Positions 47,779-48,384 of a stretch of DNA of 64,000 nt are shown one piece after another (position 1 is the first letter of the stretch; the number at the start of each line of letters is the position of its first letter). The translations under genes were made by a program, and so were the position numbers. The DNA lies in assembly GCF_058153355.1 (NCBI RefSeq), contig NZ_CM177019.1; one strand, written 5' to 3'. The notes beneath the pieces were generated by a model, which was given only the letters and a program-made list of their open reading frames with translations, was not told the DNA's origin and did no database searches.

Positions 47779-48384
47779 TTATGCACCTGCGGCAATCAGT
47801 AACTGCGCAATCTCTTCAAAGCCTCGTTCCCGCGCCAGTTCCAGCGGCGTTTTACCATATTTATCCGTCATGTGCGGGCTGGCACCGTGTTCCAGCAATA
47901 ACTGGACAATCGCCTGCTGTTTTATCCCGCCATCGTTAAGCACAATCGCTTCCAGGAGTGGCGTCCAGCCAACATGGTTGGTCTGGTTAACGTTAATATC
48001 CGTATGCGTCAAAAGCTCTTTCACAATACTTAAATGACCTTTTTCACAGGCAGGCGTCAGGCCGACACCGCCGAAACGGGTTACACAATTAAGGTCTGGT
48101 TTAGCCGGTAAAATAATTCGTAGTAGCGTTAAATCACCGTTCAGGCAGCTAATTAAAAAAGGATTTTAACATATCTGATCTTGCTTATTAATATCCGCTC
48201 CGGCATCAATTAATGCCTGAACGCAAGCATATTGCTGATATAAACTTGCCAGCGTAATTGCCGTTTTCCCCTGACGATCGCTGGTATTAATATCGACACC
48301 CAGCGCAAGGCAGGTTTTTACTTTATCGATATCACCCTGTTGCGCAGCCAATAAATAGTCGGCAGGTAGATTTTTTATAGTCAT
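47779..48384 (-). pseudogene. yahD: ankyrin-repeat protein with an in-frame stop codon
   Basis: 72-aa N-terminal ORF ends at TAA 48166-48168; the same frame continues (NPFLISCLNGDLTLLRIILPAKPDLNCVTRFGGVGLTPACEKGHLSIVKELL...) into the 81-aa ORF; total 201 codons including the stop. Confidence 0.7.

Follow-up and report, generated by a model that had tools for sequence, protein, structure and literature searches.

Two short ankyrin-repeat open reading frames (ORFs) lie one behind the other between yahC and yahE in the 64,000-nucleotide stretch of Escherichia coli DNA analyzed here (contig NZ_CM177019.1; hereafter the window), and they raise the question of whether this locus holds two small genes or the remains of a single larger one. 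Both ORFs are on the minus strand, one of 72 aa with an ATG start (48166..48384) and the other of 81 aa with a GTG start (47779..48024), and they share a common frame. Translation of that frame across the whole locus gives 201 codons (72 + 1 + 47 + 81) in which the sole internal stop is a TAA at codon 73 (Table 1). A preliminary description of this DNA had proposed that the two ORFs are in one frame, split by a TAA and 47 sense codons, and that together they have the length of YahD; the former is exact on translation, and the latter agrees with the 201-aa K-12 YahD, to which the frame aligns from end to end. Intact YahD consists of six 33-residue ankyrin repeats and, by inspection, the codon-73 stop falls at the beginning of repeat 3. 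The 72-codon part is likely the only translated product of the locus.

Table 1. Features of the yahD locus and of the neighboring yah genes, in window coordinates
Feature	Coordinates	Strand	Description
yahD pseudogene	47779..48384	-	201 codons plus normal stop at 47779-47781; gap-free alignment to K-12 and 2012C-4502
Premature TAA, yahD codon 73	48166..48168	-	TTA (Leu), TCA (Ser) or Phe codons in orthologues
yahD, 72 codons before the stop	48169..48384	-	Ankyrin repeats 1-2 only; Ank_4, Ank_2 and Ank matches at residues 12-69
yahD codons 74-120 (47 sense codons)	48025..48165	-	In-frame ATG, GTG and TTG absent
yahD residual 81-codon ORF, codons 121-201	47779..48024	-	GTG start at 48024
yahE (AllH family)	46876..47739	-	Intact; 39 nt downstream of yahD
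yahF (FdrA/AllF-like)	45339..46886	-	Intact
yahG (AllG family)	43921..45339	-	Intact
IS621 (IS110 family, 1279 bp)	42379..43657	+	Between yahG and yahI; break in K-12 collinearity
yahI (carbamate kinase family)	41351..42301	-	Intact
yahJ (amidohydrolase)	39961..41341	-	+1 A frameshift near 40180; protein ends at 390 of 460 aa

The reconstructed frame is 95.5% identical to K-12 YahD over 201 aa (tblastn E = 2.6e-128), and at the DNA level it aligns with the K-12 and 2012C-4502 genes without a gap, the single indel being one base in the upstream spacer. An alignment of this kind, full-length in protein and gap-free in DNA, indicates homology and not chance resemblance. Moreover, a 901-bp region spanning the gene finds matches at 95-97% in 5,083 of 5,426 complete E. 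coli genomes, where the sequence is annotated as yahD, an ankyrin repeat domain-containing protein, and is followed by yahE. The order of the genes in the window is also that of K-12, with pdeL, yahB and yahC followed by the divergent yahD, yahE, yahF (fdrA-like) and yahG, and the ankyrin Pfam families Ank, Ank_2, Ank_4 and Ank_5 score above their gathering thresholds, with matches on both fragments. Position, identity to annotated yahD and ankyrin domains thus all bear out the earlier identification of this gene as the ankyrin-repeat gene yahD. The antisense ORFs of 155 and 52 aa and a 61-aa upstream ORF at the locus gave no Pfam match, and neither Rfam families nor terminator-like sites were found at yahD.

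The window copy and K-12 yahD (b0318; WP_000023635.1) are alike in their location between yahC and yahE, in their 201 codons and in their six ankyrin repeats, but codon 73 is TTA in K-12 and TAA in the window, so that the full-length protein cannot be made from the latter. Full-length identity, position beside yahC and yahEFG, and ankyrin domains, the properties by which a YahD orthologue is recognized, are therefore all present in the window copy, and the one property that it lacks is an uninterrupted frame. It is a pseudogene of the YahD family and not a functional member. Literature searches combining yahD with ankyrin, and with the yahEFG/oxamate carbamoyltransferase cluster, returned no functional study of YahD, the co-mentions of yahD and ankyrin belonging to unrelated topics, and the solved structures that match YahD are generic ankyrin proteins and DARPins only.

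The window protein is also 96-97% identical to YahD of E. albertii, E. whittamii and Escherichia sp. E1V33. An origin of the window in a non-coli Escherichia species, as its DNA identity of ~96% to K-12 might suggest, was considered and rejected: synonymous divergence between K-12 and another E. coli is just as high (dS 0.05-0.20), which makes the ~4% DNA divergence of the window from K-12 normal for this region, and the proteins of the window are mostly 94-99.9% identical to those of K-12, the lowest being YahL at 88%.

What occupies codon 73 in other copies of the gene was examined in an orthologue set obtained by scanning bacterial genomes, one for each species, with the protein as guide, which located 80 loci; the 78 that were extracted and two from E. 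coli make up the set of 80, with Escherichia, Kluyvera, Citrobacter, Raoultella, Buttiauxella, Providencia and Serratia among the genera represented. Every one of the 80 is uninterrupted and encodes a protein of 201-202 aa. At the column aligned with codon 73, 64 of them have Phe, 14 Leu and 2 Ala, so the alignment to YahD orthologues that had been suggested as a check finds a sense codon at this position throughout. The codon is TTA in K-12 and 2012C-4502, and also in E. albertii, E. whittamii, Escherichia sp. E1V33 and Kluyvera. The local haplotype of the window around the stop occurs in none of the 5,426 complete E. coli genomes, the best match being 94.8% over 96 bp, and a degenerate DNA pattern built around the stop had no match in species-representative genomes, an uninformative result given that other Escherichia species have different flanking codons.

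The codon from which the stop arose is less clear-cut. Codons 70-72 of the window read CAG ATA TGT (Q70, I71, C72), where the ATA of codon 71 differs in two bases from the usual ACC, and elsewhere this Q70-I71(ATA)-C72 haplotype was found only together with TCA (Ser) at codon 73, in four metagenome contigs, two NCBI drafts and three Logan contigs. Three of the metagenome contigs span yahD and encode an intact 201-aa protein. This pairing implies that the ancestral codon could have been TCA rather than TTA. Representatives of the Q-I-C-S allele (WP_247954799.1; OGUN01000071.1, OHPX01000027.1 and ORLY01000024.1) have in common with the window CAG or CAA followed by ATA TGT as codons 70-72, together with a TGC as codon 80, and across codons 60-81 ORLY01000024.1 differs from the window at codons 63 and 73 only, where the Q-I-C-S allele has TCA at the latter and retains 201 intact codons. 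Across codons 82-201, however, this allele and the window differ at ~20 sites, which marks the window allele as a mosaic or a separate branch. The direct ancestor of the TAA may thus have been TCA, with TTA as the other candidate, and parsimony does not separate the two. Either route, TTA to TAA or TCA to TAA, needs a single transversion of the second base of the codon; on the plus strand the A or G, respectively, at window position 48167 becomes T. The proposal of a one-base nonsense change therefore holds for both ancestors, whereas that of a leucine (TTA) at this codon is right for K-12 and most relatives, with the caveat that the window's own haplotype is otherwise paired with serine.

Several independently assembled E. 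coli drafts with the Ser73 allele (e.g. GCA_023101625.1) have contigs that break off within yahD, near codon 15 or codon 88, which suggests that in another lineage yahD contains a repeat or an IS.

Is the stop itself real? It had been said that a sense codon in the underlying reads would overturn the interpretation; at the level of assemblies, TAA is what separate assemblies of public read sets contain. A Logan contig of run SRR28786219 is 100% identical to window positions 43870-58024 (14.2 kb), the TAA included, and the NCBI draft GCA_043012465.1 (contig DAXYJU010000091.1) is 100% identical to positions 43665-52339 (8.7 kb), again with the TAA and with yahD left without a called protein. Three contigs of public assemblies have the exact 72-aa and 81-aa products called on them, that of SRR28786219 and two further Logan contigs which, judging from the lacZ look-up described below, are probably those of SRR8656992 and SRR31441161. 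This support consists of assemblies of public read sets that agree on the same base, and the assembly of the window may itself derive from one of those sets. A single SNP, in lacZ, separates SRR28786219 from the window, which implies that the stop is carried by two or more isolates of the clone that can be told apart. A consensus artefact written over a true sense codon could find some encouragement in the two frameshifts (yahJ and lacZ) that the window also carries among its ~45 genes shared with K-12, which alone could hint at a noisy assembly, but these frameshifts recur in the Logan contigs, that of lacZ in three different runs; moreover, the yahD lesion is a substitution and not an error of homopolymer length. 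Together with the long identical stretches in SRR28786219 and GCA_043012465.1, this makes a sequencing or assembly error extremely improbable.

A stop that is genuine need not be a loss, and two further readings give it a function. In one, the gene is split or truncated but works, the two-repeat fragment acting alone or with an 81-aa product re-initiated at the GTG of codon 121. Ankyrin repeats are indeed recognizable on both fragments, and the frame downstream of the stop is open and conserved. A low dN/dS is, however, equally expected of a recent pseudogene, the stop is limited to one clone whereas all 80 orthologues are single proteins, and the arrangement would forfeit 47 codons that hold repeat 3 and part of repeat 4. 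Two-repeat ankyrin fragments are, besides, poorly stable. Re-initiation was judged unlikely, since the GTG of codon 121 is the only early in-frame start and the nearest upstream AAGG lies 13 nt from it, a poor Shine-Dalgarno spacing; the 81-codon ORF is probably without a usable ribosome-binding site and not translated. We regard a functional split gene as highly unlikely. In the other reading, the base change was selected for a new internal promoter that drives yahEFG apart from the native promoter, the nonsense codon being a by-product. The change to TAA does create TGTTAAAAT, an extended -10-like element (TGnTAAAAT), with a TTAATA 17 nt upstream. This candidate site (48191 to 48163, on the yahD sense strand) has 9 of 12 matches plus the TG, and in the same register K-12 has TTAAAT and the Ser allele TCAAAT, both without the A at hexamer position 2. 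Yet the region is AT-rich, and the 2 promoter-like sites found there compare with 1.4 expected in shuffled sequence, that is, with chance level; the downstream operon, moreover, is damaged by IS621 and by the yahJ frameshift, so that its expression is unlikely to have been selected for. Selection for a promoter is accordingly exceedingly improbable as the origin of the stop, and it is very doubtful that the one base change, besides truncating YahD, made a putative promoter from which yahEFG would be transcribed independently of the native yahD promoter. Were that so, the yahD pseudogene would reflect a change in how an oxamate-carbamoyltransferase-like operon is regulated, and not simply decay. 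Programmed read-through or recoding was rejected, as the stop is not conserved and is absent from the 5,426 complete E. coli genomes and the 80 orthologues.

We conclude that, very probably, a genuine and recent single-base nonsense mutation inactivated yahD in one E. coli clone. The codon-73 stop has the features expected of a nonsense pseudogene, as far as sequence comparison can tell: it is in frame, it stands where orthologues have a sense codon, and it recurs in other assemblies. In this model, a change of TCA or TTA to TAA on the coding strand would end translation after two of the six ankyrin repeats and leave a 72-aa fragment, which is unlikely to fold or function, and YahD function would be lost in the clone. 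Whether the stop exerts polarity on yahEFG is uncertain; no rut-like stretch, C-rich and G-poor, was found after the stop, and yahE has its own start 39 nt past yahD.

Several observations bear on the age of the lesion. The dN/dS of the window yahD against six intact alleles is 0.05-0.14 (Nei-Gojobori), compared with 0.03-0.16 among the intact alleles themselves, and the neighboring genes give similar values. Relaxed selection or long-term decay of yahD was rejected on this basis, the window values being no higher than those among intact alleles. No further stops or indels are present in the yahD frame, and the two window-specific replacements, C35S and A126T, fall where the alignment is variable and bring in residues used by other orthologues. 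A frame that is otherwise undamaged and a low dN/dS together imply that the inactivation is recent when set against the time over which E. coli alleles have diverged.

The genes downstream of yahD encode products with the Pfam AllH, AllF and AllG domains and a carbamate kinase family domain, and yahEFG share the AllH, AllF and AllG families with the AllFGH oxamate carbamoyltransferase cluster (fdrA/ylbE/ylbF). This set of domains identifies the yahDEFG-yahIJ cluster as a paralogue of the AllFGH/carbamate kinase system. Two more lesions affect it. In yahJ, the window has CTCTATAATTCG where K-12 has CTCTATATTCG, and the exact 390-aa product of the frameshifted gene is found on another Logan contig of SRR28786219, also 100% identical to the window. 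The IS621 element is complete and 99.6% identical to annotated IS621; it carries a 326-aa transposase ORF (42571..43551) with DEDD_Tnp_IS110 and Transposase_20 domains, and it adjoins a REP/naRNA4 array with two naRNA4 copies at 43681-43843. IS621 is a bridge-RNA recombinase element that targets REP sequences. In short-read assemblies of the clone, contigs break off at the element or close to it (42373, 43665 and 43870). Taken together, the yahD stop, the yahJ frameshift and IS621 point to a cluster that is being lost in this lineage, and the three lesions suggest ongoing loss of the yahDEFG-yahIJ pathway in the clone.

The window differs from K-12 at other sites as well. In lacZ (8839-11911, plus strand) there is a 2-base deletion near 8995-9020, TGGCAATGCCTGG in place of the K-12 TGGCGCTTTGCCTGG, and the nearest alleles that are intact exceed it by 2 nt, at 99.0% identity. 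The first frame now encodes a 79-aa peptide, whose initial ~59 residues correspond to the LacZ alpha-peptide region, and ends at a stop at 9076-9078, and the main frame restarts at an ATG at 9005 as a 968-aa ORF that is also present in SRA runs SRR8656992, SRR31441161 and SRR28786219. The clone is probably Lac-negative or weak, or else reliant on a natural alpha/omega split. Between yahJ and yahK (window ~32156-39897) there is an insertion of ~7.7 kb relative to K-12, which contains sugar ABC-transporter-like ORFs and an IS66-family element with a 523-aa transposase (37766..39337) and an accessory ORF (36974..37402). The mhpR-lacI interval (5733-7625) has two ORFs more than in K-12, of 262 aa and 317 aa, the latter combining DJ-1/PfpI and AraC-type HTH domains, and beyond betA (58100-64000) the window has extra genes, with K-12 ykgH-ykgE and rclABC/rclR having no counterpart.

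Elsewhere in the species, the yahD region finds no match in 343 complete genomes out of 5,426, and public data contain numerous truncated YahD variants; the two observations together indicate that yahD is dispensable in E. coli. Other truncated copies, among them one of 81 aa (EJA9191748.1), one of 85 aa from Shigella sonnei (WP_171687664.1) and a 169-aa variant, are independent disruptions or partial copies, which show how frequently yahD is broken or lost. Their lesions are breaks at a contig end or an IS (codons ~15 and ~88) or a frameshifted C-terminus, and in none of them is it the codon-73 TAA that is found in the window.

The codon-73 TAA is thus an ordinary, clone-specific nonsense pseudogene of yahD, and its importance beyond annotation is small. 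For annotation, it means that yahD should be recorded here as a pseudogene and not as the two small ankyrin genes, of 72 and 81 aa, that automatic callers gave. The three lesions of the yahDEFG-yahIJ cluster and the lacZ frameshift are information at the level of the strain, in which a nitrogen/carbamoyl-phosphate pathway has probably been lost, and the clone adds one more example of the dispensability of yahD in E. coli.
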